64,000 nt of DNA from Burkholderiales bacterium (GCA_964203275.1 CAXNMF010000014.1:37828-101827), one strand, 5' to 3'. Shown: positions 10,975 to 50,343, numbered from the stretch's first letter. Notes: a model not told the origin generated them from the sequence alone. Numbers and translations are program-made.

Positions 10975-11150
10975 TTTACCGCCAAGTCGCCAAGAGCGCC
11001 AAGAAAACCGGAACAAGACCCTGAGCAACACCCGAGGATCAACCCGGTTTTAACAGCACTTTCTGCAAATCCAGTTCTTTTAGTTTTCTGATCTTCTTGG
11101 CGATCTTGGCGTACCCGTCGAGCGGGTATTAAAAAGAATCTTGGCCGTAA
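10975..11150 (+). repeat. 9-bp-periodic inverted-repeat element, family A (CGCCAAG units), copy 1, right arm interrupted
   Basis: Left arm ACCGCCAAGTCGCCAAGAGCGCCAAG. Right arm CTTGGCGATCTTGGCG[insert]TCTTGGCCGTAA. Confidence 0.85.
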
Positions 11151-11168
11151 GACGTGCTTTTGTGTCAA

Positions 11169-11726
11169 TCAATGCAGGTGGCGGTTGCGCGGATGCAGCG
11201 GGATGACGGTCGAACTGCTGCTTCCGGCGGGATCGCTGGCCGGCTTCTCCGGTTTGTGCGCGTCAAACATCCGCTTGACCATCTCGGTGACCTGTTCGAC
11301 TTCGGTTTTGCCGAGGTGACGTGCAAGCATGTGGTCGAGATCTTCAACGACACACTGGCGGCGGAATTCATGGATCGCTTCCGGCGTCGGGCCGACAAAG
11401 AACTGATAGAACTCGTCTTCGCCGCTGTCCGGGTAATAGGTGACTTCGACTTCGGAGGCGTATTCGGTCAGCGGGCCGAGGCTGTTGCAGGCTTCGGTGA
11501 GTTTGTTATGGAAGCTGCGGCCGACTTCACCGGTCCAGCAGAAGCTGACCACGCGTTCACCGGCTTCGTAAACGATACCCGGTTCATCGCGCTCAAGACT
11601 TTTTGCATCGGCCAGATGGTCGGCATCCACGTAATCGAGCCAGGGGCGCAGAGCGAGTTCAACCTGCGCCAGGCGTACGCCTTTGCATAGGAATACGCTG
11701 CCGTGGACATGCACTTCGGTTTTCAT
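11169..11726 (-). CDS. Conserved hypothetical protein (DUF6806-like)
   Basis: EVHVHG, EPGI, CWT, EVTYY and FVGPTP.AI motifs recalled from this betaproteobacterial family. Confidence 0.75.
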   Translation of the reverse strand: MKTEVHVHGSVFLCKGVRLAQVELALRPWLDYVDADHLADAKSLERDEPGIVYEAGERVVSFCWTGEVGRSFHNKLTEACNSLGPLTEYASEVEVTYYPDSGEDEFYQFFVGPTPEAIHEFRRQCVVEDLDHMLARHLGKTEVEQVTEMVKRMFDAHKPEKPASDPAGSSSSTVIPLHPRNRHLH

Positions 11727-11816
11727 TACGCGGGACTCCGATGCGGGTGCTGGGGCAGGCGATGGTTGCCTGCGAGGGGCGCCAAGGATAACACACTTGG
11801 CCGGGGTGTTATAAAA

Positions 11817-11839
11817 TAATCAATAAAATCAATTATTTA
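11817..11839 (+). promoter_or_regulatory. IHF-consensus site with 5' A-tract
   Basis: TAATCAATAA-AATCAATTATTTA. Core matches WATCAANNNNTTR. Confidence 0.6.
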
Positions 11840-12768
11840 TACAACTTCTTGATTAGCCCCAGCGTATTCAATTGCGCACCCAGCGTCGCCTCTTCCTGAT
11901 CGAGAAAGCTCCGGAGTGCTTCACCATCCATCCAGGTGTTGCCCCAGTACTGGTCGGTGAGTACGGCAGCCCATTCCGGCGACGCCGTTGCGCTGCGCAG
12001 CACCTGCTGCCAGTACGCGGTTTGCGCCGGTGTGATGTCTGCGGCGCCAATGACGCCGCGCCAGGTGCCGATGACACAATCCACGCCGAGTTCTTTCCAG
12101 GTCGGCGTGTCTGAAAAAGGTCCGGACAGGCGTTGCGGCGACGAGACCGCAATCGCGCGCAAACGGCCATCGGCCAGCGCTCGTGCGGCGCTGACCGCCG
12201 TGATCGCACCTACTTCGGCGCGTTGCGCAATCACGTCATCGACGGCGTACAGCGCGGAATCAAAGACGTTGATGTGCAGCGCATCGATGCGGCCACCGGC
12301 GTGGCGGGTGACCTGCGCGAGTGCCATGTGATTGGTATTGCCGAGTGCGGTGGCCAGCGCAATGCGGCAACCTGCCGTGTCGGCGGCGATGCGCTGCATG
12401 AAGTCATGGCCATTGCGGATCGGCGAATCCGCGCGCACCACGAATGCGATGTATTCCGTGTAGAGATTCGCCAGGGGTGTCAGCGCGCCATGATCGAAAT
12501 CGCTGACGCCGAGATGGCGGTTGGTGATGATTGTCGGTGAGTTGATCGCCAGCACATGCGGATTGCCGTGTTGTGTGCGCAGGTAATCCCAGCCGTTGCC
12601 TCCGCCTTTGCCGGGAATGTTGGTCAGCCGGATGGTGTGGCCGATTAGTTTGCCGGCCTCAAGGCGGGAGATCAGCGCACGGGCCGGGCGGTCCTGACCG
12701 CCGCCGGCCGGTGTGCCGGCGATCAGCTCAATGTCGTGTACGGGGCACCAGCTGGCACCAGTGTTCAT
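11833..12768 (-). CDS. TctC-like substrate-binding protein lacking an obvious signal peptide
   Basis: TPAGGGQD, NIPGKGGG, VVRADSP, PTWKELG and WRGV motifs. Start overlaps the upstream MFS stop. Confidence 0.82.
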   Translation of the reverse strand: MNTGASWCPVHDIELIAGTPAGGGQDRPARALISRLEAGKLIGHTIRLTNIPGKGGGNGWDYLRTQHGNPHVLAINSPTIITNRHLGVSDFDHGALTPLANLYTEYIAFVVRADSPIRNGHDFMQRIAADTAGCRIALATALGNTNHMALAQVTRHAGGRIDALHINVFDSALYAVDDVIAQRAEVGAITAVSAARALADGRLRAIAVSSPQRLSGPFSDTPTWKELGVDCVIGTWRGVIGAADITPAQTAYWQQVLRSATASPEWAAVLTDQYWGNTWMDGEALRSFLDQEEATLGAQLNTLGLIKKLYK

Positions 12769-14048
12769 GCGCCGGCAGCTTGCGGGTTGCCGGTCTTCGG
12801 TATGAACAGCACCAGCAGGTTGGCGGCAATGATGGTGCCGGCGAGGAAATAAAAGGCCGTGTACACACTCCAGGTGTCGGCGATGATGCCGAAGGTCGCC
12901 GGCGCGATGCTGCCGCCGATGGCGAGGATGGTGAACTGCAGGCCGACCCCCGTGCCGGCAAGCCGCTTGGGCGTGTTCTCCACCGCCCAGGCCTGCATCA
13001 CCGGGCGCATCGCGTACAGGAAGAATCCGACCAGCGCGACGAACACGATGAACAAAAAGGATTGGCCGGCGAAGACCATGCCGATGATGGTGACGCCGGT
13101 CAGGATCATGCTTGACAGCACGACCTGGCGCCGGCCGACCTTGTCCGAAACATGCCCGGCAATCGGTCCCGCGATCAGGCCGGCGACCTGCAGCACCGTC
13201 ATGCAAACGCCGATGGCAATCGTCGAATAACCCTGTTCGTACGCCAGGTACACCGGCAGGAACACCATCAGTCCGACCTGTGTCAGTGTACGGAACCCGC
13301 CGCTGATGCAGATCAGCATCAGCGTGCGGTCGCGCATCAGCGTGCCCAGATCATGCAGGTACTGTCGTGCGCTCCACTTGCTGTCATTACCGGCGTTGAC
13401 CGCGTCCTTTTTAATTTCATTATTACTTTCATTTTTGTCTTTTCCGCTGTCCGCTGCGCGGTTGGTGGCCAGTGCGCCGACCAGCACCAGTATCAGCGTC
13501 GCCATCACCAGCCCCGGCACGATGTTGATCACCACCACTTCGCGCCAGCTGAACCAGGCCAGCAGTGTGCCGGCCGCCAGCGGCGCCAGCGCTTCGCCGA
13601 TGTTGCCGCCCATGCCGTGGAAAGACAGCACCAGGCCCTTGCGTTGCGGGTACTGATGGGCCAGCGTCGGAATCGCTGCCGGATGCCACAGATTGTTGCC
13701 GATGCCGACCAGCATCACGCAGACCACCAGCATCCACATGCTGTTAGTCAGGCTCATCAGCGCGTAGGGAAAGCCGACCCAGAACAGCGAGGCGGCCATC
13801 AGGTAACCCTTTTTGCCGATGGCATCGACAATCATGCCGCCCGGCAGGTTGGAGATTGCGCCGGCGATGTGCTGCGCACTCATCAGAAAACCGATTTGCG
13901 TATAGGAGAGGCCGAGCTCTTTTCCGATCAGCGGCAGCAGTACGTAAAACGTTGCCGGATACCAATGGGTGAGGCCGTGGCCGGCGGAAATCAGCCAGAC
14001 ATCACGGAAGGGGCGCGTGGGCAAAGCGTCGGCGGCAGCGGTGCTCAT
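12765..14048 (-). CDS. MFS transporter (Fsr-like)
   Basis: GH..TH, WHP.A, GGNIG and GHVSDKVGRR motifs, about 12 TMs. Confidence 0.9.
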   Translation of the reverse strand: MSTAAADALPTRPFRDVWLISAGHGLTHWYPATFYVLLPLIGKELGLSYTQIGFLMSAQHIAGAISNLPGGMIVDAIGKKGYLMAASLFWVGFPYALMSLTNSMWMLVVCVMLVGIGNNLWHPAAIPTLAHQYPQRKGLVLSFHGMGGNIGEALAPLAAGTLLAWFSWREVVVINIVPGLVMATLILVLVGALATNRAADSGKDKNESNNEIKKDAVNAGNDSKWSARQYLHDLGTLMRDRTLMLICISGGFRTLTQVGLMVFLPVYLAYEQGYSTIAIGVCMTVLQVAGLIAGPIAGHVSDKVGRRQVVLSSMILTGVTIIGMVFAGQSFLFIVFVALVGFFLYAMRPVMQAWAVENTPKRLAGTGVGLQFTILAIGGSIAPATFGIIADTWSVYTAFYFLAGTIIAANLLVLFIPKTGNPQAAGA

Positions 14049-14157
14049 AATATGGTCTCAAGCAGGGATTCAAGCCAGTTTAGCACGCGGCTTTGCGCGT
14101 AAGCCCCGCGTATAATCGGCGCCTCTCCCGCAACACAAAACCTAAATCCGGCCTCTC

Positions 14158-16281
14158 ATGCGTACTGACATCGAACGTTTTTTCAGCCCCAAATCCATCG
14201 CCATCATCGGCGCTTCGCAGGATCTCATCACCATCAGCGGCCAGCCGCTGAAACATCTGCTGAGCCACGGTTACAAGGGCAAGCTGTATCCGATCAATCC
14301 CAAGTATCAGGAGATCGCCGGCGTCAAATGCTGGCCGTCGCTCGATTCGCTGCCGGAAGTGCCGGAACTCGCGCTGATCCTGGTCAATGCGACGCGGGTG
14401 GCGGACATGCTGACGCTTTGCGGCAAGCAGGGCGTGCCTTACGTGATCATTTTCAGTTCCGGATTTTCTGAGACCGGCGGCAGCGGCGTGGCGATGCAGC
14501 AGAAACTTGCTGACATCGCGAAGGAATACGACATCGGCGTCATTGGTCCCAACTGCCAGGGCATGATCAGCCCGCCGGACGCCGTGTATGCCGGTTTCGG
14601 TTCGGTGTTCAACGCCGATTACACCGCAGGCACGGTGAGCATGGTGTCGCAGTCCGGCGGTTTCGGATTTTCGGTGATGAACCTGTCTTCGCTCGACGGC
14701 GGCCTGCCGTTCCGCCAGATGGTGACCACCGGAAATGAAATTGGCGTATCGACGCTGGATTTCATTGACTATTTCATCCGCGATCCCAACACCGACATCA
14801 TCGGCGCCTATATCGAAGGCGTAAAGGATGCGCGGCGCATTCTCGATGTCGGCGACAAGGCGCTCGCCGCCGGTAAACCGATCCTGATGTGGAAGGTCGG
14901 CAACACCGAGCAGGGACAGAAGGCTGCGGCATCACATACTGCGAACCTTGGCGGCGCAATGGCGCTGTACAAAGCCGCGTTCAAACAGAAGGGCATCATC
15001 CAGGTCGATGACATCCAGGATCTGGTTGATTACGGTCATGCGCTGCGCAGCAACCGGCTGCCGCGCGGCAACCGCGTCGCGATCATTACCATCTCCGGCG
15101 GCGCCGGCATCCTGATGACTGATGAGATCGTTGCCGGCGGCATGCAGATGGCGCAACTGGCTCCCGACACCGTGGCCAAGCTGAAAGAGTTTGTGCCTTC
15201 TTTCGGTTCGGTCGGCAATCCGGTGGACGTGACCGCGGCGATTTTTAATGACCTGACACTGATCAATCGCACGCTGCAGGCGATCAACGACGATCCGGGC
15301 GTGGATTGCATTGCGATGATCAACGCCTCGCTGCAAGGCGAGATCGCGCTGAATGTCGCCAACGAGATCGTTGCCGTCGCCGCCAAGACCGACAAGCCGA
15401 TTTTCATTTCGTGGAGCGCGCGCGACGCCGTCGCCCCCGAGGCTTACGCCGTGCTCGATGCGGCGCGCATTCCCCATTACAAGTCGCCGGTGCGTTGCGG
15501 CCGTGCGCTGGCCGCGGTGTCCTGGTACGCCGAAGCCAAGCGCCGCAATGCCGCACAGAAAAATGACAAGGCGCCGGTAATCAGCAAACCGGCGGCGCAG
15601 GCGATGCTCAAGGGTAAAACCGGCGACGTTGCGGAATACGCGGCAAAGCAGGTGCTGGCCGAATACGGCATTTCAGTGACGCAGGAGCAGCTGGCGACCA
15701 GCCGCGATGCAGCAGTCGCTGCCGCGCAGAAAATCGGATTCCCGGTGGCGATGAAAGTGCAGTCGTCCGATATCTCGCACAAGACCGAAGCCAAGGCGGT
15801 GTGTCTGGGTGTGGCGGATGCCGCGGGTGTTGCCGCGGCCTACGACGAGATCCTCAAAAACGCCAAGGCCTACAAGGCCGATGCGCGCATTGAAGGCGTG
15901 CTGGTGCAGGAGATGGTCGGCGGCGGCATCGAAGCGATCATCGGCATTACCAACGACGCGCTGTTCGGCCCGGCGGTGATGTTCGGCCTCGGCGGCATCT
16001 TCGCCGAAGTGCTGAAGGACGTGTCCTTCCGCCTTGCGCCGATCACCCCGGCGATGGCGCGCGAGATGGTTGAAGAGATCAAGGGATATCCGGTGCTCGC
16101 CGGTGCCCGCGGCAAACCCGCAGCCGATGTGGATGCGCTGGTGGATACGCTGGTGAAGCTGTCGGCACTGGCAGTGGACCTGAAAGACCAGGTCGCCGAA
16201 CTCGACATCAATCCGCTGATCGTCATGCCCAAGGGTAAAGGCGTCAAAGCTGCGGATGCGTTGATTAGAATGAAGAGCTAA
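14158..16281 (+). CDS. ADP-forming acyl-CoA synthetase (acetate--CoA ligase family)
   Basis: PKSIAIIGAS, IGPNCQG, SQSGG, ASHTA, NPVD, and ATP-grasp motifs HKTE, FGP.VMFGLGG, ELDINPL. Confidence 0.93.
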   Translation: MRTDIERFFSPKSIAIIGASQDLITISGQPLKHLLSHGYKGKLYPINPKYQEIAGVKCWPSLDSLPEVPELALILVNATRVADMLTLCGKQGVPYVIIFSSGFSETGGSGVAMQQKLADIAKEYDIGVIGPNCQGMISPPDAVYAGFGSVFNADYTAGTVSMVSQSGGFGFSVMNLSSLDGGLPFRQMVTTGNEIGVSTLDFIDYFIRDPNTDIIGAYIEGVKDARRILDVGDKALAAGKPILMWKVGNTEQGQKAAASHTANLGGAMALYKAAFKQKGIIQVDDIQDLVDYGHALRSNRLPRGNRVAIITISGGAGILMTDEIVAGGMQMAQLAPDTVAKLKEFVPSFGSVGNPVDVTAAIFNDLTLINRTLQAINDDPGVDCIAMINASLQGEIALNVANEIVAVAAKTDKPIFISWSARDAVAPEAYAVLDAARIPHYKSPVRCGRALAAVSWYAEAKRRNAAQKNDKAPVISKPAAQAMLKGKTGDVAEYAAKQVLAEYGISVTQEQLATSRDAAVAAAQKIGFPVAMKVQSSDISHKTEAKAVCLGVADAAGVAAAYDEILKNAKAYKADARIEGVLVQEMVGGGIEAIIGITNDALFGPAVMFGLGGIFAEVLKDVSFRLAPITPAMAREMVEEIKGYPVLAGARGKPAADVDALVDTLVKLSALAVDLKDQVAELDINPLIVMPKGKGVKAADALIRMKS

Positions 16282-16292
16282 AGACCAAAGGC

Positions 16293-16408
16293 TTTAGCCA
16301 CAGAGTTCACAGAGTTCACAGAGGACACAGAGTAAAACCGAACTCATGACCAAGCTGTGCCCGGGTTTGATTTTCTCTGTGCTCTCTGTGTCCTCTGTGG
16401 CTGCTTTT
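16293..16408 (+). repeat. 9-bp-periodic inverted-repeat element, family B (CACAGAG units), copy 1
   Basis: Left TTTAGC-CACAGAGTT-CACAGAGTT-CACAGAGGA-CACAGAG. Right CTCTGTG-CTCTCTGTG-TCCTCTGTG-GCT. Confidence 0.88.
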
Positions 16409-16427
16409 CAGATTTTGTTTTGAAGGA

Positions 16428-17570
16428 ATGTTCATGACTGTTTCCGCTGAAGTGCGTCTGCTGTGCGACGAGGTCGCCAAGTTCGTTCGTGAACAGGTGG
16501 ATCCGCGTTCGCGCTGGATCGAGGAAAACGACGCGATACCCGATGACCTGTTTCAACTCGCCCGCGACATGGGCCTGTTCGGACTGACCATTCCCGAGGA
16601 ATACGGCGGCAGCGGTCTGGATCTCGCCGGCAAGTGCGCGATCGAGGAAGTGATGGGGCGCACCAATTACGGTTTCGCCACGCTCATTGGCAATCACACC
16701 GGTATCAGCACGACCGGCATCACGGCCTTGGGCAATGCAGCGCAGAAGCAGAAGTTCCTGCCGAAGATGGCCAGCGGTGAATGGGTTGGCGCGTTTGCGT
16801 TGACCGAGCCGCAGGCCGGTTCCGATCCGGCGTCTATGCGCACGATGGCGGTGAAGAAAGGCGACCGTTATGTGCTGAACGGCGAAAAAATCTACATCAC
16901 CAACGCCGGTCCCGCGCATGTCTTCACGGTGATGGCGATCACCGACAAGTCGAAGGGCATCAAGGGCATTTCGGCGTTTGTTGTCGAGCGGGACACGCCG
17001 GGTTTCAGTGTCGGCAAAAACGAATTGAAGATGGGCATGCACGGCTGCACCACCGCGCCGCTGTCCTTCACCGATTGCGAAGTACCGCCGGAAAATCTGC
17101 TCGGCGCCGAAGGCATGGGTTATGTGCAGGCAATGAAAACGCTGACTGCCGGACGCGTTACGGTTTCGGCGCGCTGCTGCGGCATGATGGACAAGTTGAT
17201 CGACCAGACCGCTGAGTTCATGAAAACGCGAACGCAGGGCGGCAAACGCCTGGCCGATCACCAGGGCCTGCAGTGGATGCTCGCAGACATGGCGGTGGCG
17301 CGCGATGCTGCACGCGGCCTGACTTACCGTGCGATCGACACTCTGATGCGCGGCGAGCGTGGCACGATGGAAGCCTCGACCGCCAAAGTGTTTTCCACCG
17401 AGGCGCTGGGCCGTGTGGTTGATGCTGCGGTGCAGATCCATGGCGGCATGGGTTATATGCGTGAAGTCGGCATTGAAACCACCTTCCGTGACGCGCGCAT
17501 TGTGCGCATTTACGAGGGCACGTCGGAGATCCAGCGCAACATCATCGCCGGGCTGTTGCTCAAAGACTGA
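16428..17570 (+). CDS. Acyl-CoA dehydrogenase
   Basis: PEEYGGSG, FALTEPQAGSD, LNGEKIYITN, QIHGGMGY, RIYEGTSEIQR. Confidence 0.95.
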   Translation: MFMTVSAEVRLLCDEVAKFVREQVDPRSRWIEENDAIPDDLFQLARDMGLFGLTIPEEYGGSGLDLAGKCAIEEVMGRTNYGFATLIGNHTGISTTGITALGNAAQKQKFLPKMASGEWVGAFALTEPQAGSDPASMRTMAVKKGDRYVLNGEKIYITNAGPAHVFTVMAITDKSKGIKGISAFVVERDTPGFSVGKNELKMGMHGCTTAPLSFTDCEVPPENLLGAEGMGYVQAMKTLTAGRVTVSARCCGMMDKLIDQTAEFMKTRTQGGKRLADHQGLQWMLADMAVARDAARGLTYRAIDTLMRGERGTMEASTAKVFSTEALGRVVDAAVQIHGGMGYMREVGIETTFRDARIVRIYEGTSEIQRNIIAGLLLKD

Positions 17571-17602
17571 TTAAATAAGTCAATAAAAACAAGGGGATAT
17601 TG

Positions 17603-18379
17603 ATGGCCAATGTAAAAAACCTGTTTGATCTGTCCGGCCAGGTGGCCATCGTCACCGGTGGTGCCACCGGCATTGGTTTGCAGATGGCGAAGGGACTGGC
17701 CGAAGCCGGCGCCAACATCGTCATCTGCTCGCGGCGTCTCGATGTCTGCGAACAGGCGATTGCTGAAATTGAGAAGATCGGCGTCCAGGGTCTGGCGGTC
17801 GGTTGCGATGTCACCAAGGCTGATCAGGTCGAAGCGCTGAAGGATGCCGTGCTGAAAAAATTCGGCCGCGTCGATATTCTGGTCAACAACGCCGGCCGCG
17901 CCTGGGTGGCGCCGCCCGAAGACACGCCGCTGGAGCGCTGGCAGCAGGTGTTCGACCTCAACATCACCGCGCCCTTCCTCTGTGCGCAGGTCTTCGGCCG
18001 CGAGTTCATCAAACAGAAGCGCGGCAAGATCGTCAACATCGCGTCGATTGCCGGCATGGTCGGTCGCAATCCGGCGGCCTATAACTCGATCGCCTACGGT
18101 TCGAGCAAGGGTGCGCTGGTGAATTTCACGCGTGACCTGGCAGTGAAATGGGCGCAACACAACATCCAGGTCAATTGCATCTGCCCGGGATTTTTTGTGA
18201 CGCCGATCAACGAAAAGATGTACGTGAAAAACAAGGACAACGTCGAGCGCGAGATTCCGCTGAAGCGCACCGGCGGACCGGATGATCTCAAAGGCATTGT
18301 TGTACTGCTTGCTTCCGGGGCATCGAATTTCATGACCGGCGCGATCATTCCTGTCGATGGTGGTGCTGTGGCCTGGTAG
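17603..18379 (+). CDS. Short-chain dehydrogenase/reductase (gluconate 5-dehydrogenase-like)
   Basis: TGGATGIG, NNAG, YGSSK catalytic motif, PVDGG. Confidence 0.92.
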   Translation: MANVKNLFDLSGQVAIVTGGATGIGLQMAKGLAEAGANIVICSRRLDVCEQAIAEIEKIGVQGLAVGCDVTKADQVEALKDAVLKKFGRVDILVNNAGRAWVAPPEDTPLERWQQVFDLNITAPFLCAQVFGREFIKQKRGKIVNIASIAGMVGRNPAAYNSIAYGSSKGALVNFTRDLAVKWAQHNIQVNCICPGFFVTPINEKMYVKNKDNVEREIPLKRTGGPDDLKGIVVLLASGASNFMTGAIIPVDGGAVAW

Positions 18380-18395
18380 AGGCAGAATTTAAGTC

Positions 18396-18422
18396 TCAAT
18401 TTTGTCCTGGGTAAGCCGTAAT
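18396..18422 (+). promoter_or_regulatory. Candidate sigma28 (FliA)-type promoter
   Basis: TCAA-N15-GCCGTAAT, about 46 nt upstream of the GGDEF gene. Confidence 0.45.
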
Positions 18423-18468
18423 AGGGTATGGAAGAGTATTAAACGGCGTTATCTGCTGGGAAAAGCAT

Positions 18469-20232
18469 ATGAAAGCGGTTCTTGAAGGGGCCATCGGCGC
18501 AACCGGGATGCAGGATTCAACAGTGGCCCAGCCGGCATTCAGGTTGCTGCGCTATTTTTCGGCTGCCAGCTTTGTTGTCATCCTGGTCGCGACCGGGTTG
18601 TTGACCGGACTGCAGCAACGTCTGGCCGTTCAGGACCTTATATATGCCCAGGAAGAGCACCATGGCCTGCTGACCCGCTCGGTAGCCAGCGGACACTGGG
18701 AGGAATTTTCAGGGCTGTTCAAATCCGCGGTCGGACTGGACGCTGATGCTCTGCGCCAGCATCCTGAAGTCGCCCGGCTGCAGGCCTTGTTCCAACGTGA
18801 ATTTTCCGGCACCCAGGTGCTGAAGCTCAAGATTTACGATATGGCCGGCCGCACCGTGTTTTCCACCGATCCCAAGCAGATCGGTGAAGATAAATCAGGC
18901 AATGCCGGATTTCAGTCGGCCCGTGACGGCAATCCGGCAAGTGAACTGACCCACCGCAATGAATTCAGCACTTTCGAGCAGGTTGTGGAAAATGTCGATC
19001 TGGTTGCATCGTACATTCCCATCAAGTCCAGGGATGCGAGCGGCACCGTCGAGGCGGTGTTTGAGATCTACAGCGACACCACGCCGATGCTTACGCAGAT
19101 TCGGAAAACCCGTATCGCGGTGGCGTTGCAGGTCACTGCGGTACTGATCGGTCTCTATCTCGCGCTCTTCTTCATTGTTCGCCATGCGGATCGCGTCATC
19201 CGCGCGCAGGAAGCGCAACGCCAGCGTGATGAAGAAAAACTGCACAGTACCCGACGGCAACTGGCACTCAGTGAACAGTTCCACAGGGCTCTGATCGAGA
19301 ATTCATCGGATGCCGTGATGCTGCTTGGCGAGGATTTACGCATCAGTTATTCGGCGCCGGCCAATTCCCGCGTGCTTGGGATCCCGGAAGACCGTTTGCT
19401 GGGGATGGCGTTGTCAGATTATGTCAGTGAAGATTCACGGGACGCTGTCGCAAGCTGGCTGGTGGGCGCGATTGCAGCACCGGGCGTGCCGCGACGCGGT
19501 GAATTTAAAGCCGTTCACGAGACGCTGGGCAGCCGGTATTTCATGGCGACGGCAACAAACTTGCGCGGCCATACGGGGATTGATGGCATCGTGGTCAACG
19601 TGCAGGATTTCACCGAGCGCAAACTTGCCGAAATCGAAGTTCAGCAACGGGCTCAATTTGACGGCCTCACCGGTCTGGCGCGGCGCGAGTATTTCATCCA
19701 GCAGATGCGCAAGACCCTCGCCCGGGCTGCACGCAACAAGGAAGCGCTTGCCCTGATGTTCATGGATATTGACGGATTCAAGGCGGTCAACGACAACTTG
19801 GGGCACGAGATCGGGGACAAGCTGCTCAAGGAAGTCAGCCTGCGGATCCGGGCCGCACTCCGCCAAGAGGACGAAGTCGCTCGAGGAGGGGCTGAGAACG
19901 GTCCCAATGTCGCGCGTCTGGGCGGTGACGAATTCACGGTACTGCTTACCAATCTGGATCATCCGGCAAGCGCCGGTCTGGTCGCCGAGCGTGTTCTGGC
20001 GGCGATCGGCGCACCCTATGTATTCGGTGACGTTACCGTGCGGGTAACCTCAAGCATTGGCATTGCCGTTTACGACGGTCAGGGTCTGAATTGCGAGGAC
20101 ATGATCAAGCAGGCGGACACGGCAATGTACCTCGCCAAGCAGAAGGGGAAGAACACCTTCTGCTTCTATGGCGATGTCAATTCTCAGAGAATGGTTGCTG
20201 AACTCAGCTTGGTGCAATCCCGGCAGCCCTGA
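18469..20232 (+). CDS. Membrane sensor diguanylate cyclase (2 TM, periplasmic domain, PAS, GGDEF)
   Basis: Two TM segments, PAS (LIENSSD...DFTERK), DGLTGL, DIDGFKAVND.LGH, RLGGDEF, ADTAMY.AK. Confidence 0.92.
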   Translation: MKAVLEGAIGATGMQDSTVAQPAFRLLRYFSAASFVVILVATGLLTGLQQRLAVQDLIYAQEEHHGLLTRSVASGHWEEFSGLFKSAVGLDADALRQHPEVARLQALFQREFSGTQVLKLKIYDMAGRTVFSTDPKQIGEDKSGNAGFQSARDGNPASELTHRNEFSTFEQVVENVDLVASYIPIKSRDASGTVEAVFEIYSDTTPMLTQIRKTRIAVALQVTAVLIGLYLALFFIVRHADRVIRAQEAQRQRDEEKLHSTRRQLALSEQFHRALIENSSDAVMLLGEDLRISYSAPANSRVLGIPEDRLLGMALSDYVSEDSRDAVASWLVGAIAAPGVPRRGEFKAVHETLGSRYFMATATNLRGHTGIDGIVVNVQDFTERKLAEIEVQQRAQFDGLTGLARREYFIQQMRKTLARAARNKEALALMFMDIDGFKAVNDNLGHEIGDKLLKEVSLRIRAALRQEDEVARGGAENGPNVARLGGDEFTVLLTNLDHPASAGLVAERVLAAIGAPYVFGDVTVRVTSSIGIAVYDGQGLNCEDMIKQADTAMYLAKQKGKNTFCFYGDVNSQRMVAELSLVQSRQP

Positions 20233-21169
20233 TCACTTTCCGCCATTTTTCGATTTCGGACTGGATGTATTTGGCGAATTCCGCGGAGCTGTTGCCCACC
20301 GGATCCGCGCCTTCCCGCGACAGCCGTTCGTACATTTCCGGGCTTTTCAGGATGGCAACGACTTCGGTGTTGAGCTTGTTGACGATGTCGGCAGGCGTAC
20401 CGGCCGGCGCGAGCAGGCCGTACCAGGTGGCCGACTCATAACCCTTGACGCCGGCTTCGATCATTGTCGGCAGTTCCTTCGCTGCGGGTGAGCGTTGCGC
20501 ACCGGTCACTGCCAGTGGACGCAACCGGTTGTTTTTGACCTGCGGCATCGCGGAAATGATGCTGGCGAAGGTCATCGACACCTGACCACTGACGACATCG
20601 ATCAGCGCCGGCTGTACCCCTTTGTAAGGTACGTGCAGCAAATCGACATTCGCCAGCATCTTGAACAGTTCGCCCGATAGATGCCCCCCGGTGCCGTTGC
20701 CGGCAGAGGCGAATGCCAGTTTGCCTGGCTGCTTTTTTGCCAGCGCCACCAGTTCTTTCACGGATTTCGACGGAACCGACGGATGAACCAGCAGCATCAG
20801 GTTCTGCGTCGCCACCAGCGAAATCGGCACAAAATCCTTCACCGGATCATAGGGCAGTGATTTGCGCAGACTGACGTTGGTGGCGAATGAGGCGACCGTG
20901 CCCATGATCAGCGTATAACCGTCGGGCGGCGCTTTGGCCACCAGTTCCGCGGCGATTGCACCACCGGCGCCCGGCCGGTTGTCGACCAGCACCTGCTGGC
21001 CCCAGCGATCGGCGAGTTTGGGTCCGACCGTACGTGCCATGGTGTCGACGCTGCCGCCCGGCGTGCTGACGACGATGATGCGGATCGATCGTGTCGGGTA
21101 GTTCTGTGCCGTCGCGTTTGCGGCGGCAGCCAGGGCGACGGCAATCAGCAGGGTGTTTATTGAGCGCAT
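20204..21169 (-). CDS. Bug/TctC substrate-binding protein
   Basis: Signal peptide, YPTRSIRIIV, DNRPGAGG, HVPYKG, WYGLLAPAGTP. Confidence 0.93.
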   Translation of the reverse strand: MRSINTLLIAVALAAAANATAQNYPTRSIRIIVVSTPGGSVDTMARTVGPKLADRWGQQVLVDNRPGAGGAIAAELVAKAPPDGYTLIMGTVASFATNVSLRKSLPYDPVKDFVPISLVATQNLMLLVHPSVPSKSVKELVALAKKQPGKLAFASAGNGTGGHLSGELFKMLANVDLLHVPYKGVQPALIDVVSGQVSMTFASIISAMPQVKNNRLRPLAVTGAQRSPAAKELPTMIEAGVKGYESATWYGLLAPAGTPADIVNKLNTEVVAILKSPEMYERLSREGADPVGNSSAEFAKYIQSEIEKWRKVIRAAGIAPS

Positions 21170-21210
21170 TATTGATCTCCTCGTTTTATTTGTCGCAACA
21201 CAAGCGGATA

Positions 21211-22152
21211 TCAGGGCTGGAAGCCCACCGAACCTTCGTACTTTGCCAGAACCTCGGCGCTGGGCAGAAATTCTTCTTCCAGTTTTTTGATATCGGAAAA
21301 TCCGATGAAGGCGTGCATATTTCCCGCCGGATGGTCTTTGGTGCGGGCTTCGAAACGTTTGACGGCCTCGACGTCGTCCTGGGCGAATTCGTCGAAGTAA
21401 TCGACCATGGCGACTGTGGATGAACGCAATGAGCCGGTGGCGTTCGACACCATCGCGATGCCGAGTTCGTTCAGCCGCGACACATGCAGGCGCGGCGATA
21501 CCCCGGTGCGGTTGAAATGCAGGGGGCCCTTGATCTCTTTGGCGCAGCGTTCCAGTTCAGCTTCGGAGGTCAGTGCTTCGGGGAATATCATGTCGGCGCC
21601 GGCTTCGAGGTAGGCATTGGCACGGCGGATCAATTCATCGACGCTGCCGCCGGCGACACCGCGGGCATCACAACGTGCGATCAGCACAAAGTCCGGATCC
21701 AGTTCGCGGCGCACGCGGTCGGCGGCGCGCAGCTTGCCGGCCATTTCCTCCATTGCCACGATCTGCTTGCCAGCAACGTGCCCGCAACGCTTGGGCGCAA
21801 CCTGGTCTTCGATGTGGATGGCGGCAGCCCCGGCGGTGATGAAGTCCTCAACGGTGCGCATGACATTAATTGCATTGCCGAAACCGGTATCGGCATCGGC
21901 GATCACCGGGATTTTTACGGCGCGCGCGATGTAGCGGGTGATCATCACGATTTCGTCGAGCGTGACCAGACCGACGTCGGGTTTGCCGAGCAGCGATGCC
22001 GAGACGCCGTAGCCGGTGACCCCGCAGCAGCTGAAACCGGCCTTCTCGATGATTATGGCGGACAGTGCGTTGTAGGCGCCGGGTTTCACCAGCGTGCGGC
22101 CTTCCTTGAGCATGGCGCGCAGGCGGCTGGACTGGGGTATTGGTCGGGACAT
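21211..22152 (-). CDS. Isocitrate lyase/PEP mutase family lyase (copy 1)
   Basis: ADADTGFG, IEDQVAPKRCGH, IARCDA, AGADMIF. Confidence 0.92.
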   Translation of the reverse strand: MSRPIPQSSRLRAMLKEGRTLVKPGAYNALSAIIIEKAGFSCCGVTGYGVSASLLGKPDVGLVTLDEIVMITRYIARAVKIPVIADADTGFGNAINVMRTVEDFITAGAAAIHIEDQVAPKRCGHVAGKQIVAMEEMAGKLRAADRVRRELDPDFVLIARCDARGVAGGSVDELIRRANAYLEAGADMIFPEALTSEAELERCAKEIKGPLHFNRTGVSPRLHVSRLNELGIAMVSNATGSLRSSTVAMVDYFDEFAQDDVEAVKRFEARTKDHPAGNMHAFIGFSDIKKLEEEFLPSAEVLAKYEGSVGFQP

Positions 22153-22215
22153 GATTTTTCCTCCGGGGCTTGCTGCGGCGCGGGAGTGGCCACAGCAGCG
22201 GTTTTTCTTGCCCCA

Positions 22216-22239
22216 AATTGTATTTAATTGTGTACAATT
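22216..22239. promoter_or_regulatory. GntR/FadR-type operator between divergent units
   Basis: Palindrome AATTGT-GT-ACAATT (22226-22239) plus a degenerate adjacent copy AATTGTATTTAATT, next to a GntR gene. Confidence 0.7.
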
Positions 22240-22307
22240 CGTCAACCCGCCGGTCCGGTCCAGAAAGTCCGTTCAAAGAACCGCGGCGGCCGAGGAGATC
22301 ATCGCTG

Positions 22308-23084
22308 ATGCCTACCCGCAGCACCGCAGTCCCCAGACGCAAGGCCGCCGTCGTTCCGGCCGGCATCAGCCTGGCCGAGGTCGCCTATCAGGGGCTGCTC
22401 GAGGGCATCCGCCGCGGTGATTTCCGCCCCGGCGATCCGGTGCGCGAACAGCATGTCACCGACTGGCTGAAGATCAGCCGCACCCCCGTGCGGGATGCGA
22501 TGCGGCGGCTCGAGGCTGAAGGTTATCTGGTGCATGAACGCCACCGCGGTGCAGTGGTTGCGACGCTCGATGATCAGGCGGTGACCGAACTCTACGCCTT
22601 GCGTGAGGTGCTGGAAGGTGCGGCCGCGGTGATGGCGGTGCGCCATGCCAGCGAATTCGAAGTCGCGCAACTCGAACAGCTGATCGACGACAGCAGCCGC
22701 GTGCGCGATCCCAAGGTGCTGATCGAATACCAGCGCAACATCAACGACCTGGTTCACCGCATGGCACGCAATCGCTATCTGGTGAAGACCATGCGCATGC
22801 TGCGCGAAACGCTGTTCCTGGTCGGCACCGTGGTCACGGTGATGCCCGACCGGCCGGCGACGCTGCTGCGCGAGCACCGCGCGATGCTTGCCGCTCTGAA
22901 AAAACGCGACGCGCGCAAGGCGGAGCAGGTGATGCGCGGGCATGTGCGCAGCGCGCTGCACAGCAGGCTGCAGCTGCGTGCCGGCGTCAACAGCGGCAAT
23001 TACCCCTATGTGCCCTTTCCCGCGGCAACGGCGAGGGCTGAAGCCAATCCGAAATCCAAGCCAAAGAATCGCAAACGCAAGTAA
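22308..23084 (+). CDS. GntR-family (FCD) transcriptional regulator
   Basis: ISRTPVRDAMRRLEAEG wHTH, LYALREVLEG, EH.AML.AL..RD. Confidence 0.92.
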   Translation: MPTRSTAVPRRKAAVVPAGISLAEVAYQGLLEGIRRGDFRPGDPVREQHVTDWLKISRTPVRDAMRRLEAEGYLVHERHRGAVVATLDDQAVTELYALREVLEGAAAVMAVRHASEFEVAQLEQLIDDSSRVRDPKVLIEYQRNINDLVHRMARNRYLVKTMRMLRETLFLVGTVVTVMPDRPATLLREHRAMLAALKKRDARKAEQVMRGHVRSALHSRLQLRAGVNSGNYPYVPFPAATARAEANPKSKPKNRKRK

Positions 23085-23112
23085 TTCAACGCAGAGTCAA
23101 CACGGAGAACAC

Positions 23113-24009
23113 ATGAAAAGCAGAGGCGCGCAGTTCAAGGAACTCATCAACAACAAGAAGCAGATACTGATCCAGCCGGGTGTTTACGACGGCTACAGCG
23201 TGCGGTTGATTGAGCAGGCAGGATTCAAGACGGCGTCGATTTCCGGCGCCGGTGTGTCCGAAAGCCGCATGGGCTGGGCCGACCGCGGCGTGATGACTTT
23301 TGAAGAGAACCTCAACAACGCGCGGCGGCTCGCCGACTGCTCCGACCTGCTGCTGCGCGCCGATGCCGACACCGGTTACGGCAACGCGATGACCGTGCAC
23401 TTCGTGGTGCGCGCATTTGAAAAAGCGGGCATGGCGGCGCTGATGATCGAGGACCAGGTCTGGCCCAAGCGTTGCGGCCACATGGCCGGCAAGGCGTGCA
23501 TCCCCGCCGAAGAGATGGTGCAGAAGGTCAAGGCCGCGGTGGACGCGCGCCGCGACAACGATTTCGTCATCGTGTCGCGCACCGACGCCGCGGGCCCGCA
23601 CGGCGTCGACGAGGCGATCCGCCGTCTGAATATGTATGCCGAAGCCGGCGCCGACGTGATGTACGCCGACGCGCTGCTGTCAAAGGAAGACATCGCCAAG
23701 GTTGCGAAAAACGTGCCGAAACCGTTAATCGTGAATATGGGCCTGGGCATGCGGCCGCGCAAGACCACGCCGCTAATGAGTCCGCAGCAGTTGCAGGACA
23801 TCGGTGTTGCTGCGGTGAGTTACCCGCGGCTGCTGACCACCGCCGCGCTGCGCGGCATGATGAACGCGCTGGCGGTGTTCAAGGATGAAGTGGTCGGCCA
23901 GAACAAGGTGGTGGAACGCACCGACCTGCAGGTGGGCTTCGAGGAACTCAATGACCTGATGGGCATGAAGGTTCTCGATGAAATGGAAAAGAAATACAAG
24001 GGCGGGTAA
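23113..24009 (+). CDS. Isocitrate lyase/PEP mutase family lyase (copy 2)
   Basis: PGVYD, ADADTGYG, IEDQVWPKRCGH, RTDA. GGAG RBS. Confidence 0.92.
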   Translation: MKSRGAQFKELINNKKQILIQPGVYDGYSVRLIEQAGFKTASISGAGVSESRMGWADRGVMTFEENLNNARRLADCSDLLLRADADTGYGNAMTVHFVVRAFEKAGMAALMIEDQVWPKRCGHMAGKACIPAEEMVQKVKAAVDARRDNDFVIVSRTDAAGPHGVDEAIRRLNMYAEAGADVMYADALLSKEDIAKVAKNVPKPLIVNMGLGMRPRKTTPLMSPQQLQDIGVAAVSYPRLLTTAALRGMMNALAVFKDEVVGQNKVVERTDLQVGFEELNDLMGMKVLDEMEKKYKGG

Positions 24010-24020
24010 TCCCAAATTCT

Positions 24021-24162
24021 TTAACCGCCAAGACGCCAAGAGCGCCAAGGAAACCTGAAACATCATGTTCTCGCGCCGGGTGTTCATTGCCGCTGGCAAG
24101 ACAGGCATTTCGAATTGATTTGATTTTGATCTTCTTGGCGCTCTTGGCGTCTTGGCGGTAAA
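24021..24162 (+). repeat. 9-bp-periodic inverted-repeat element, family A, copy 2
   Basis: Perfect 26-bp IR ACCGCCAAGACGCCAAGAGCGCCAAG (24024-24049 / 24134-24159), 84-nt spacer. Confidence 0.92.
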
Positions 24163-24201
24163 AGGGTTTGTATCTTTTAGGCTCGTACAGGACATTGACT
24201 C

Positions 24202-25455: not shown

Positions 25456-25466
25456 GGTCAAATTCG

Positions 25467-25569: not shown

Positions 25570-25594
25570 ATGCTTTTGCTTTGACGGTGCAATC

Positions 25595-39031: not shown

Positions 39032-39142
39032 TTTAGCCACAGAGGACACAGGGCGCACCGAGAACTTCAAAACCAAATCCCGTTCGGAAATGTTTCGGTT
39101 TGGCTTTTCTCTGTGCTCTCTGTGTCCTCTGTGGCTGCTTTT
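39032..39142 (+). repeat. 9-bp-periodic inverted-repeat element, family B, copy 2
   Basis: Left TTTAGC-CACAGAGGA-CACAGGGCG-CACCGAG. Right 38 nt (39105-39142) identical to 16371-16408. Confidence 0.88.
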
Positions 39143-48144: not shown

Positions 48145-48308
48145 GTATCCTGACGCCGCAATTCGCGGCATAAGCACGCGGTTTTTGGGCGATACTCGCT
48201 TCATCGACCGCGTGCCCGGTCATCGACGCCGGTTCAGGACCGGCGTTGTTCCCACCTGTTGCTGGTGAACCTGCGGGAACCGAAGCGCGCGGCGTTGACC
48301 TGATCATC

Positions 48309-49457
48309 ATGAGCGAAATCCGCCCTTCCGACGACACGCAGCCACCCTCGCACATCACCGATCTGATGCGTGGCCGGCTTGCCTTGACGCCAGCCACAGT
48401 CACGCTGGTCGCGGCCAATGTTCTGGTGTTTGCAGCGATGCTGGCCAATGGCGCTGGCCTGTGGCATTCCCCCAATCATGTGCAACTCGCCTGGGGCGCG
48501 GGCTTCGGGCCTGCGACCAAGGATGGTCAGTGGTGGCGGCTGGGCACAGCCATGTTCCTGCACTTCGGCCTGGTGCATCTGGCGATGAACATGTGGGCGC
48601 TGTGGGATGGCGGCCGACTGGTTGAGCGACTCTACGGTTCGCTGCGTTTCTTCGGCATTTTTCTGGCCAGCGGACTGACCGGCAACCTGTTGTCGCTGAT
48701 TGTTGCCGCCGACCGTGCGGTCTCCGGCGGCGCCTCCGGTGCAATCTTCGGCACCTATGGCGCGCTGCTGGTCTGGTTGTGGCGAGAGCGGCGGTCGGTG
48801 CATCCGACGGAGTTCCGCTGGCTGTTCGGCGGTGCGGCGCTGTTTACGGCGGCGACCATCGGCCTTGGGCTGCTGATCCCGGGCATCGACAATGCTGCGC
48901 ATATCGGCGGGCTTGTCGCGGGGGCATTGCTCGGTGCGGCAGCGGCGCGACCGTTGCCGGGACGGGCCGCGGCAACAGGGCGCCGGCAGTGGTTCGCGGC
49001 TGTAGTGTATGCAGTCATGGTGGCGGTGCTGATCATGCGGATTCCCGATCCGCTGTACCGCTGGAAGGATGAACTGCAGGCGCGTTCGGAGGTTCGCGAA
49101 TTTCTGGTCACGGATCAGATGATTGCGCAACGCTGGCAGGAACTGATGAGCGCGAGCAAAAAAGGCGGAGCGACCTTTGAGGAACTGGCGGGTCGTATCG
49201 AGTCCGACATCACCATGGAATACCAGCAGAGTTTCGAACAACTCTCCGCCTTGAATCTCGACGCTGCGGCGCCTTCGGCTGAAACCGTGGCGATGTTGAA
49301 GCGCTACGCGCAATTGCGCAGCGAAGCCTCACATCTGCTCTCCGAGGGCATACGCCTGAAAGACCAGAAGATGATCGATGATGCGCTGGAAAAAGCGCGG
49401 CAGGCGCCGTATCTGGCGCGTGGCGTCAAACCACCGCCCGCTGCTCCGGAACGCTGA
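48309..49457 (+). CDS. Rhomboid family intramembrane serine protease with C-terminal helical extension
   Basis: QWWRL, FLH.G..HL..N, GASG, NAAHIGG. Confidence 0.92.
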   Translation: MSEIRPSDDTQPPSHITDLMRGRLALTPATVTLVAANVLVFAAMLANGAGLWHSPNHVQLAWGAGFGPATKDGQWWRLGTAMFLHFGLVHLAMNMWALWDGGRLVERLYGSLRFFGIFLASGLTGNLLSLIVAADRAVSGGASGAIFGTYGALLVWLWRERRSVHPTEFRWLFGGAALFTAATIGLGLLIPGIDNAAHIGGLVAGALLGAAAARPLPGRAAATGRRQWFAAVVYAVMVAVLIMRIPDPLYRWKDELQARSEVREFLVTDQMIAQRWQELMSASKKGGATFEELAGRIESDITMEYQQSFEQLSALNLDAAAPSAETVAMLKRYAQLRSEASHLLSEGIRLKDQKMIDDALEKARQAPYLARGVKPPPAAPER

Positions 49458-49509
49458 GGGGTTCTTACACGACTGCAGTGGCCGGTTCTGAATGTACGGT
49501 CAGTTTCGG

Positions 49510-50236
49510 TCAACGGCTCACGGGTTCCAGGCCGCTGCCGGCAATCGCCGGATGCGCTTCTGCCGAAGCCAGGAAAGCGATGACCTTGCGAGCACAGGCG
49601 GGGTCCGGCGAATTCGCGCCAATGCCCACGGTAAAGTTCGACGCCTTCTGCAGTTCCCGCGGCAGCGGTGTGACGTGAGCGATGCCAGGCGATCGGCAGC
49701 AGTTCACTCATCTGCTGGAAGCCGAAGTCGAGTTCACCGCGTGCGAGCACCGTTGCCGACGCGTTCACCGCCGCCGATCAAGCGGCTTTTGGACAGCACC
49801 TGGTCAGCGATGCCGAGACGTTGCACGAGTTCATTCGTGTAGTACTTGCCGCTTTCACTGGCGGAGTAGCCGATGCCTTTTGCCGCGAGTAGTGCCTGTG
49901 CGCAGATCGTCCGCAGTGCGGATCTTCGGATCCGGGCGCGCCTTCGCGTACCGCAAAGCCCATCATAGAGCAAGCGATAGTCGTTGCATGCTCGGCCAGC
50001 ACAGTGACCATCGGCAATGGACTGGCGCAGCACGCCGTCGGCGACGATGACGATGTCCGCCACTTCGCCGCGTTTCAGGCGGTTGGGGATCGAGTTGTCG
50101 CCGGTGCCGATGGACGTGGTGACGGTGACAACGGTTTTGCCGGTCAGTTGCTTTCAAGCTGCGGGATCAGGGACTTGTAAGCAGCGGTGAAGGCGCCGGA
50201 GGTCATTACGCGGAATTCGGTGCTTGTGCTGGTCAT
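49510..50236 (-). pseudogene. ModA-like (SBP_bac_11) gene broken by multiple frameshifts
   Basis: Fragments in alternating frames: VMTSGAFTAAY, SIPNRLKRGEVADIVIV, GFAVREGAP, YSASESG, VLARGELDFGFQQMSELLP, PLPRELQK...SGLEPVSR. Confidence 0.82.
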
Positions 50237-50259
50237 TGTTTGCGAGTTGTTAAAGGCAA

Positions 50260-50343
50260 TTTACAGGCTGGGTGGAATGGACAGGATGGAGCAAGGTTAC
50301 AGGCAGCAGATTTTGATCCTGTAAATCCTGCCCATCCTGTTAA
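50260..50343 (-). repeat. 9-bp-periodic inverted-repeat element, family C (ACAGGAT units)
   Basis: ATCCTGTAA-ATCCTGCCC-ATCCTGTTAA (50316-50343) opposite a degenerate TTTACAGGCT-GGGTGGAAT-GGACAGGAT (50260-50287). Confidence 0.72.

Follow-up and report, generated by a model that had tools for sequence, protein, structure and literature searches.

Six short inverted-repeat elements lie scattered over a 64-kb stretch of DNA from a Burkholderiales bacterium (hereafter the window), each in a gap between two genes. Their arms are built of tandem 7-nucleotide (nt) words, and in the genus of this bacterium the same arms enclose the genes of a family of small proteins, GxxExxY (PF13366/TIGR04256). The source genome (G000) is a 3.88-Mb metagenome-assembled draft in 26 contigs, 95% complete; C1, C18 and the like are its contigs, and G0nn stands for relatives of the genus. 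An original prediction, made from the window alone, had taken the six elements for empty units of a dispersed mobile or regulatory system, and had suggested that such arms flank GxxExxY genes in other bacteria. We have followed both ideas through the source genome, through 40 genomes of the genus and beyond it.

Results

Six word-array elements in tight gene junctions

The elements of the window are the following; none is assigned a strand.

A1, 10975-11150: gene-less element of family A, between convergent open reading frames (ORFs). Left arm 10975-11003, TTTAC and three CGCCAAG units at spacings of 8 and 9; loop 11004-11095; right arm 11096-11150, two CTTGGCG units, a 28-nt insert (11112-11139) and a third unit CTTGGCC followed by GTAA.
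B1, 16293-16404: gene-less element of family B, with co-oriented ORFs on either side and the upstream stop 17 nt away. TTTAGC and four CACAGAG units, 42-nt loop, three CTCTGTG units and GCTGC.
A2, 24020-24162: gene-less element of family A, between an upstream gene and a LeuC-like gene. TTTAAC and three CGCCAAG units, 84-nt loop, three CTTGGCG units and GTAAA.
A3, 25467-25570: gene-less element of family A, between the LeuC-like and a LeuD-like gene. TTTAC and three CGCCAAG units, 45-nt loop, three CTTGGCG units and GTTAAA.
B2, 39032-39138: gene-less element of family B. TTTAGC and CACAGAG/CACAGGG/CACCGAG, 46-nt loop, three CTCTGTG units and GCTGC.
C, 50260-50344: gene-less element of family C, between co-oriented minus-strand ORFs. 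Decayed left arm, TTT and ACAGGCT/GTGGAAT/ACAGGAT/AGCAAGG/ACAGGCA, then a short loop; good right arm, ATCCTGT/ATCCTGC/ATCCTGT and TAA.

All six stand where the prediction had placed them, far beyond what chance would give. At up to one mismatch the two-unit B pattern CACAGAGNNCACAGAG occurs 8 times in the window, where chance would give 0.05, and none of 100 shuffles reaches 8; the A pattern CGCCAAGNNCGCCAAG occurs 7 times for an expected 0.08, six of them inside elements. Read from outside to inside, an arm consists of an A-rich tract, TTTA(G)C, two to four 7-nt words and AAAAC(C), the words (CACAGAG, CGCCAAG or ACAGGAT) keeping an 8-9-nt register with free linkers. Family A follows the pattern TTTA(A)C, CGCCAAG, N, CGCCAAG, AG, CGCCAAG, loop and mirror image. 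Family B reads TTTAGC, (CACAGAG NN) three or four times, loop, (NN CTCTGTG) three times, then GCTGC or GCTAA, and its three-unit word array is (CACAGAGNN)3.

Some details of the earlier description need correction. Tandem units of 9 bp are the rule in family B, but the units of family A are spaced 8 and 9. Nor are the arms uniformly made of fixed 7-mers: there are degenerate words in the left arms of B2 and C, and the insert in the right arm of A1 separates units 2 and 3. TTA does begin the arm next to the upstream stop, but TTTA(C/GC) belongs to the inverted repeat and is found at both ends. Family A had also been called polar, with CAAATTC before the left arm and TGATCT before the right one. 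These motifs are limited to the three window copies among the 10 A elements of G000, and the loop bearing TGATCT is inverted in a sister species, so that the family is not intrinsically polar.

The placement of the elements had been well described, at about 10-30 nt after a stop: by a crude ORF caller, 16-29 nt separate the upstream stop from the first or last word in six of six cases, and co-oriented ORFs flank five of them, A1 being the convergent exception. Genome-wide, about 28 of 41 elements have co-oriented flanks according to the same caller, which overcalls; co-orientation is close to the expectation for any intergenic feature and is not special. Around the window elements stand housekeeping genes of operons, the LeuC-like/LeuD-like pair for instance, which have no common function; integron attC sites, for comparison, are imperfect inverted core sites that follow cassette ORFs in an array beside an integrase. 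Folded in silico, 40 elements form hairpins with a median minimum free energy of -57.9 kcal/mol and a median z of -9.3. Rfam returned no match at gathering score in the 64-kb window. A scan of positions 10000-29999 for the simple intrinsic-terminator pattern flagged none of A1, B1, A2 and A3, which is a weak negative because it allows loops of 3-8 nt only and those of the elements are longer.

A small palindrome recurs within arms. The insert in the right arm of A1 (11112-11139) is made of the palindrome TACCCGTCGAGCGGGTA followed by TTAAAAAGAAT, and its general form is a 26-28-nt unit with a palindrome TACC(C/T)..GGGTA and a short A/T-rich or GA-rich tail. Together with copies at C16:28497, C4:182013 and C11:4086, it makes up 4 of the 56 loose-palindrome matches in G000, and all four sit between words of right arms (two A, two B). 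B left arms in G019 and G007 have an insert of this kind as well. Its appearance suggests a second-order parasite of the arms or a programmed bulge in them.

Dispersed copies in the genome and the genus

The elements are not confined to the window. When all 3.88 Mb were searched de novo for any 6-mer repeated in three or more units, with a period of 7-12 and an inverted partner within 800 bp, only the B and A words came back. Allowing one mismatch per word, G000 holds 29 paired CACAGAG (B) and 10 paired CGCCAAG (A) elements. It also has three C elements: the scan paired one, and inspection added the copy in the window and C1:583501, in both of which one of the arms is degenerate. The B population consists of 28 gene-less elements and a single filled one, which bears out the view of the window elements as gene-less units of a dispersed system. 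Loops in G000 measure 20-107 nt, the filled B element being the sole exception.

Across the 40 genomes of the genus, matches to CACAGAGNNCACAGAG range from 0 (eight genomes) to 280, and the reversed-pattern control gives 0 in all of them. The top three counts, 280, 203 and 169 (G053, G009 and G041), all come from genomes with an intact B gene; such counts are descriptive, kin being non-independent and assemblies incomplete.

In contigs of sequencing run X1 (24007-24208 and 25421-25622), the A arms have a depth of 35-186 and most neighbouring genes one of about 5-27, and some contigs join the arms of A2 and A3 or replace their loops. This shows that the community sampled contains many other A-type copies, and it is uninformative about the window locus.

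Each arm family encloses its own lineage of GxxExxY genes

The interior of the filled B element (C18:41237-41653) is 367 nt long and codes for a protein of 120 aa (gene C18:41280-41627). This is the only PF13366 match in G000 (131.5 bits against a cut-off of 22) and, as the prediction had it, lies outside the window. The protein scores 133 bits with TIGR04256, 'GxxExxY protein' (cut-off 35), and A-type and C-type proteins from relatives reach 140.5 and 143.7. The suggested link between arms and GxxExxY genes holds throughout the genus: PF13366 is present in 17 of the 40 genomes (22 match rows, corresponding to 20 genes), and arms enclose 20 of the 20, the one gene of G000 among them, CACAGAG in nine cases, ACAGGAT in seven and CGCCAAG in four. 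In another family of the order the three PF13366 genes are all in arms, with the words CACGAAG, CGCAAAG and a degenerate CACNAAG.

Each arm type has its own GxxExxY gene lineage and its own conserved junction. The B gene occurs once in 9 of the 40 genomes, at the same junction: it follows the same upstream gene in G000, G054, G041, G009, G019, G048, G053 and G008, and the junction is partly resolved in G003. The C gene lies between TctC-like and acyl-CoA-dehydrogenase-like genes, and the A gene occupies a third junction in G052, G055 and G043. The three families had been considered unrelated, a view that does not stand. The A-, B- and C-type proteins are homologous (38-49% identity), CRCNRAG fits both the A and the B words, and the three arm types have in common an outer TTTA, an A-rich outer tract with TCAAA-like motifs and an inner AAAAC(C). 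Since each arm type pairs with its own lineage of homologous genes and the arms share these features, the families represent diverged lineages of one design. Gene and arm even overlap in the B clade, where the final codons and stop of the gene (..SL*, TCT CTG TGA) form the first right-arm word, across phyla.

Three observations concern individual junctions. The TctC-like/acyl-CoA-dehydrogenase-like junction, which in seven relatives carries a C-type element with a GxxExxY gene, holds in G000 (C1:201,150-201,283) a decayed inverted array of GGTGGCT-like heptamers. Directly upstream of a filled C element in G013 (C362:922-1332, locus L004), four tandem ACAGGAT/ATCCTGT arm pairs, spaced about 111 nt apart, form a local array in which the units are gene-less. 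At three orthologs of C18:41220-41240 (L129, L130 and L132) the upstream gene seemingly ends at a TAG in the TTAGCC end of the element, which suggests, with the frame judged by eye, that insertion replaced the native stop codon.

The GxxExxY protein as a predicted nuclease

Of the predicted catalytic residues, K76 is invariant in 87 aligned sequences, and D64 and E74 reach a conservation of at least 90%. The AlphaFold model of the G000 protein has a mean confidence (pLDDT) of 94.8 and a predicted TM-score (pTM) of 0.87. Foldseek matched this model to Cas4 SSO0001 (E 6.8e-4, TM 0.51), as well as to lambda exonuclease, AddAB nuclease domains and the archaeal Hjc resolvase (TM 0.47 both ways); the E-values are weak and the matches are generic PD-(D/E)xK relatives only. 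A search of PDB sequences with the protein profile gave nothing below E 0.26. We consider it credible that GxxExxY proteins are PD-(D/E)xK nucleases, as the model and the conserved residues predict; in the available part of PMC3424549 the family is listed as of unknown function.

Turnover at orthologous junctions

The contents of a junction change from one species to the next. At the A3 junction (LeuC-like/LeuD-like), 13 of 29 resolved loci have no element (gaps of 23-50 nt), eight have an A, five a B and one a C, and at two a C element is nested in the loop of a B. The A2 junction, upstream of the LeuC-like gene, was resolved at 28 loci: three carry type A, 11 other tandem words (inverted arrays of GGTGATT-like or GGTGGCT-like words with a period of 7-8), 12 other palindromes, and two are nearly empty. 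With these palindromes and additional arrays, at least four kinds of repeat are therefore hosted at one site within one genus. In G054 the A2 loop is the reverse complement of the G000 loop and the arms and flanks keep their orientation; recombination between the arms must therefore have inverted the loop. Among the palindromes of this junction (L017-L046, at the equivalent of window positions 24010-24200) are, for example, GTCACTCCGGCGAAAGCCGGAGT...CTGGATTCCGGCTT..GCCGGAATGA and CCCTCATCCCCGCCCCTTCTCCCCGCGGG.

The junction of the filled B element, resolved at 24 loci, has the filled B at eight, no element at 11 (23-26 nt) and a C element with a B remnant at five. At these five a gene-less C precedes what is left of a B right arm; the end of this remnant, GCTAAAGGTTTTTT-ATG, is kept and resembles, from its sequence, a ribosome-binding site for the following gene. 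In G000, too, an older and partial right arm lies downstream of the intact filled element. We compared the B1, B2 and A1 junctions in up to five further genomes. At B1, the B element of G054 has 2+2 units and an entirely different loop, G012 has a C element with a B remnant, G009 and G011 have GGTGATT-type arms, and G014 has a 3-nt gap. G054 and G009 also have B2, which G011, G012 and G014 lack (stop-to-start gap of about 12-14 nt), and A1 is present in G054 and absent from G014. Where the C element stands in G000, two relatives have an additional 1.75 kb or so of DNA, and in three the flanks are on different contigs. These comparisons show that elements have been gained, lost, replaced, nested and inverted at orthologous sites; far from being fixed, presence is polymorphic at the A3, filled-B, B1, B2 and A1 junctions.

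Words are kept, linkers and loops are not

Among the 29 B elements of G000, mismatches affect 14 of 1183 word positions, a figure biased by element detection, and the linkers use at least nine dinucleotides. Site-anchored elements at the A3 junction of eight species have nearly unchanged words next to flanking genes that are 78-86% identical, and their loops vary in length and are unalignable. Each loop is unique, and loop turnover is fast. The conserved feature is therefore the word in its register rather than a perfect hairpin or the whole element, a pattern that favours sequence-specific recognition of the words.

Three simple origins for the variable parts found no support. We rejected the idea that the two arms of an element are copies of each other, linker complementarity within an element being 45% against 47.7% with arms permuted. 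Copying of loops between elements is not supported, 560 of 561 loop pairs in G000 being unrelated; the sole pair above the shuffled maxima shares a nested mini-insert. Nor is there support for loops as leftovers of the nuclease gene in local alignments of 38 loops with seven B-type interiors, a comparison of low power on loops of 20-95 nt.

Arms and genes beyond the genus

Scanning a single genome for each species yielded 599 GxxExxY relatives, the best 80 of which span more than 10 phyla plus one archaeon. We aligned 87 genes, 79 from this set and eight from relatives. At least three exact CRCNRAG-type words lie in proper orientation within about 130 nt of 66 of them, two words at eight and fewer at 13, and among 16 loci that were inspected several of the arm-poor cases proved to have degenerate or rearranged arms. 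A strict exact-word detector had found arms at 34 of 78 broad loci and at 136 of 753 mismatched-flank controls, which score because different loci share a word; the word-panel count and inspection took its place. In a quick tree of the proteins, poorly resolved with 50 of 84 branches open, the G000 protein belongs to a clade with 99% support that includes proteins from Planctomycetota, Acidobacteriota, Hydrogenedentota and Fidelibacterota, all with CACAGAG arms. This discordance with the host phylogeny points to horizontal movement of the gene together with its arms. Word labels change 40 times on the tree against 50.7 when shuffled, and none of 200 shuffles is as low.

A sister cargo in arms of the same kind

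PF05635, the four-helix-bundle '23S rRNA intervening sequence protein', has no match in G000 and is found in 17 of the 40 genomes. Inverted arrays of tandem 7-8-nt words flank 12 of 12 inspected loci, the words being TGGGTGA, GTGATTAG, GGATTGA, TGGTAAT, GGTGAGC and GTGAAGN, and it is words of this type that stand at the A2 and B1 junctions of other species. Across 20 PF13366 and 12 PF05635 loci, cargo type does not cross with word type or period, and arms specific to their cargo are therefore favoured over a generic holder.

At its start, contig C2 of G000 contains 11 kb (C2:180-11230) with long tandem arrays of ACTCACTN, of period 8 and up to 17 units, in both orientations. Similar words, CTCACTA/GGTGAGC, flank the PF05635 gene of G022 (L175).

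Discussion

We consider it probable that the elements of the window belong to populations comparable to those of REPIN/RAYT systems, in which non-autonomous hairpin elements have as their partner a single-copy PD-(D/E)xK nuclease whose recognition sites would be the phased words. The six loci would be gene-less members of one foldback (hairpin) superfamily whose complete form carries the GxxExxY gene of about 120 aa. The nuclease gene of each arm type has no more than one copy per genome, at a fixed junction and with mostly vertical inheritance, and the gene-less copies, from tens to more than 100, are found in tight junctions after stop codons. The nuclease of the cassette may bind the words and cut or resolve the hairpin or cruciform, with repair or recombination at the arms as the driver of spread, of turnover of the loops and of their inversion. 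Genes that are translationally coupled would tolerate an insertion between them because the ends of the element bring stop codons (TAG/TAA) and an AAAGG Shine-Dalgarno-like motif. We put forward more tentatively, as a possibility, a specific form of this mechanism: the word arrays could be phased landing pads for a GxxExxY oligomer that cuts the extruded hairpin or cruciform, after which repair between arms copies, swaps, inverts or deletes the loop.

The element would also be co-transcribed with its neighbours as a long RNA hairpin. Only four RNA runs matched, with 5-9% of words, and the contigs of three of them and of one DNA run include none that bridges gene, element and gene. One RNA-library contig holds an A-type arm pair from another locus and is no evidence of transcription at the window loci.

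Several of our results weigh against the proposal of a population partnered with a nuclease. Arms abound where no B-type gene was detected, with 99 matches in G024, 99 in G055, 98 in G005, 80 in G007 and 75 in G042. G000 holds 10 A and three C elements with no A- or C-type gene detected, and the junction that houses the A gene in three relatives is there a 27-nt gap free of A. No target-site duplication could be defined by comparing filled and empty junctions, in species that are 14-22% diverged. One loop pair out of 561 exceeds the shuffled maxima, and the loops score against the nuclease gene with a mean z of 0.58 (2 of 38 above 2.5); with loops unrelated to each other and without likeness to the gene, neither copying of whole elements nor simple internal deletion is demonstrated. 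Words change often on the protein tree, and the clustering that we observed is also expected from linkage alone. The unrelated cargo PF05635, in the same architecture, fits a generic cassette holder as well. Finally, we infer the link from nuclease to word from sequence patterns.

Part of this would be expected if the arms were the primary unit, moved or maintained by a host factor or another enzyme, and GxxExxY and PF05635 were selfish passengers in their loops, an alternative that we regard as unlikely. Arms without a cognate gene, orphan A and C families in G000, unique loops and two unrelated cargo families in one genus all suit it, and insertion into a loop is directly visible where C is nested in B. 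Passengers, however, would hardly be found inside arms in all 20 of the genus GxxExxY genes examined, nor keep so strictly to their own words and periods, nor, as in the B clade, have their stop built into the first arm word across phyla. No other candidate enzyme turned up, with no systematic search for one made. The two Y1 transposase genes of G000 (PF01797, two matches) have no A, B or C array within 500-700 bp, with one isolated CGCCAAG near one of them. These genes, of the IS200/IS605 type (C18:3556-4700 and C1:195666-196165), have repeats of their own, AATTAAAGGGGCCAGGCTCAATT twice upstream and its complement downstream, and form a separate REP/RAYT-like pair that is unconnected to the A, B and C arms.

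We judge it improbable that the elements are sites selected by the host, either arrays for a global DNA-bending regulator such as integration host factor (IHF) or HU, or RNA hairpins for mRNA stability, processing or partial termination in operons. Strong conservation of words amid drifting linkers and loops, placement at operon junctions and very stable hairpins would agree with such a role. An A-rich tract, GC-rich stem and T-rich tract resemble a bidirectional terminator, and the right end provides an AAAGG 7-10 nt before the next start that is retained when the rest of a B element is replaced. Regulator binding is, besides, what was proposed for similar arrays in the available part of PMC2700814. 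Against a host role, the same junction is empty at 13 of 29 loci and elsewhere takes any of three word types interchangeably, the flanking genes share no function, and counts run from 0 to 280 among species of one genus. A tie to one gene family across phyla, discordant with host phylogeny, does not suit it either, and neither, with the weight that a scan for short loops allows, does the terminator negative in four window elements. As for chance similarity or an assembly artefact, to which a 26-contig draft and an arm depth inflated by other copies in a DNA run might seem to lend colour, it is already refuted by the excess of matches over expectation (8 and 7 against 0.05 and 0.08), by the B controls at 0 in all 40 genomes and by orthologous copies in independent assemblies of other species.

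Repetitive extragenic palindromes (REPs) are short imperfect palindromes with a conserved 5' GTAG. The arms described here differ from them in being made of two to four phased tandem 7-nt words with free linkers and no GTAG head, as the prediction had recognized. In the REPIN-RAYT systems (RAYT, REP-associated tyrosine transposase), as described in the parts of the literature available to us (PMC3116915; PMC3337134; bioRxiv 10.1101/2021.07.10.451892), a single-copy and mostly vertical gene is likewise flanked by inverted repeat copies, tens to hundreds of gene-less palindromic copies lie between genes, and several distinct repeat-gene pairs may coexist in a genome. There the partner is a Y1/HUH transposase, whereas here it is a PF13366 PD-(D/E)xK protein, and our loops are unique to each copy, the whole element not being visibly a copied unit. 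The predicted analogy therefore holds in population structure, with a single-copy partner gene; membership of the REPIN-RAYT class fails on enzyme and repeat type.

The closest precedent for the architecture is in Geobacter metallireducens, in which Aklujkar et al. (2009; PMC2700814) described putative 'global regulator binding sites' of classes 1-3. The available part of that paper lists 24 site pairs built of four tandem octamers, 21 of three tandem TCTCCGTS[Y] units and eight of five tandem heptamers, including a pair between proB and proA; paired sites are on opposite strands at a variable distance and were read as IHF/HU-type sites of unidentified global regulators. Paired sites of three to five tandem 7-9-nt units, in several 'evolutionarily related' classes within one genome, are what we see too. 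Both the class-2 unit TCTCCGTS[Y] and TCTCCGTG are reverse complements of CACGGAGA, a word that flanks seven GxxExxY genes in our sample; family B (CACAGAG) and class 2 (CACGGAG) are one base apart and, by that description, identical in architecture. In contrast to our results, the part of PMC2700814 at hand does not connect the sites with a GxxExxY gene, with mobility or with presence and absence between species. As for novelty, the literature searched contains no printed link between arms and nuclease, although the supplement of PMC2700814, with its neighbouring genes, may bear on this. The paired-array architecture, in turn, was in print in 2009, as the part of PMC2700814 at hand shows, and cannot count as fully novel. 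In the library searched, publications on GxxExxY/PDDEXK_3/TIGR04256 include none concerning repeats.

Other known repeats are more distant. With loops unrelated in 560 of 561 pairs and no transposase, the elements depart from miniature inverted-repeat transposable elements (MITEs), which have terminal inverted repeats with a target-site duplication and an internal sequence common to the copies and to an autonomous insertion sequence, and two inverted arms only, 7-nt words and 1-2-nt linkers set them apart from CRISPR arrays, with their many direct repeats of 24-48 nt and unique spacers about as long, as had been foreseen. Correia/NEMIS and ERIC repeats are small non-autonomous intergenic inverted repeats, co-transcribed with their neighbours, in which a defined internal sequence is copied with the ends, target duplications occur and no nuclease partner is enclosed; in our elements only the arms are common to the copies. 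Intervening sequences (IVSs) lie in an rRNA helix and are excised from the RNA, unlike the present elements, which stand between protein genes with GxxExxY as cargo. In what is available of the report on the Coxiella burnetii 23S rRNA IVS with its S23p protein (PMC4990558), a small selfish insert also has complementary ends that form a stem in the transcript, and its cargo is of the PF05635 type, the family that sits in tandem-unit inverted arms in this genus. The TAACTGA heptamer repeats of Beggiatoaceae and cyanobacteria (169 direct sets against one inverted, upstream of start codons; PMC4679880, in the part available) and the cyanobacterial STRR repeats resemble our elements in their period-7 short tandem words, their intergenic position and their patchy distribution across phyla, but the TAACTGA repeats lack paired inverted arms around a loop or gene.

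Phased 7-nt words in inverted arms provide the widespread GxxExxY family (PF13366/TIGR04256) with a concrete candidate substrate. What is new with respect to other systems of palindromic repeats and partner genes is the different enzyme, the word-array arms and the loops unique to each copy. A genus of 40 species in which the same junctions are empty, filled, swapped, nested and flipped is a natural experiment whose biochemistry is directly testable, and the 'global regulator binding sites' reported in 2009 in a tractable bacterium can probably be re-read as selfish hairpin elements. Operons of core genes, the LeuC-like/LeuD-like pair for instance, have junctions at which elements land recurrently and where the inserted ends supply stops and ribosome-binding sites; this bears on the evolution of operons and on genome annotation, arm words being easily miscalled as short ORFs. 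If the landing-pad mechanism is true, the elements would form a transposase-free, nuclease-driven class of mobile hairpin cassettes in more than 10 phyla, with a sister class that carries an Avd-like four-helix-bundle protein, both akin in design to rRNA intervening sequences. Both classes could then reshuffle small cargo and rewire translational coupling within operons.

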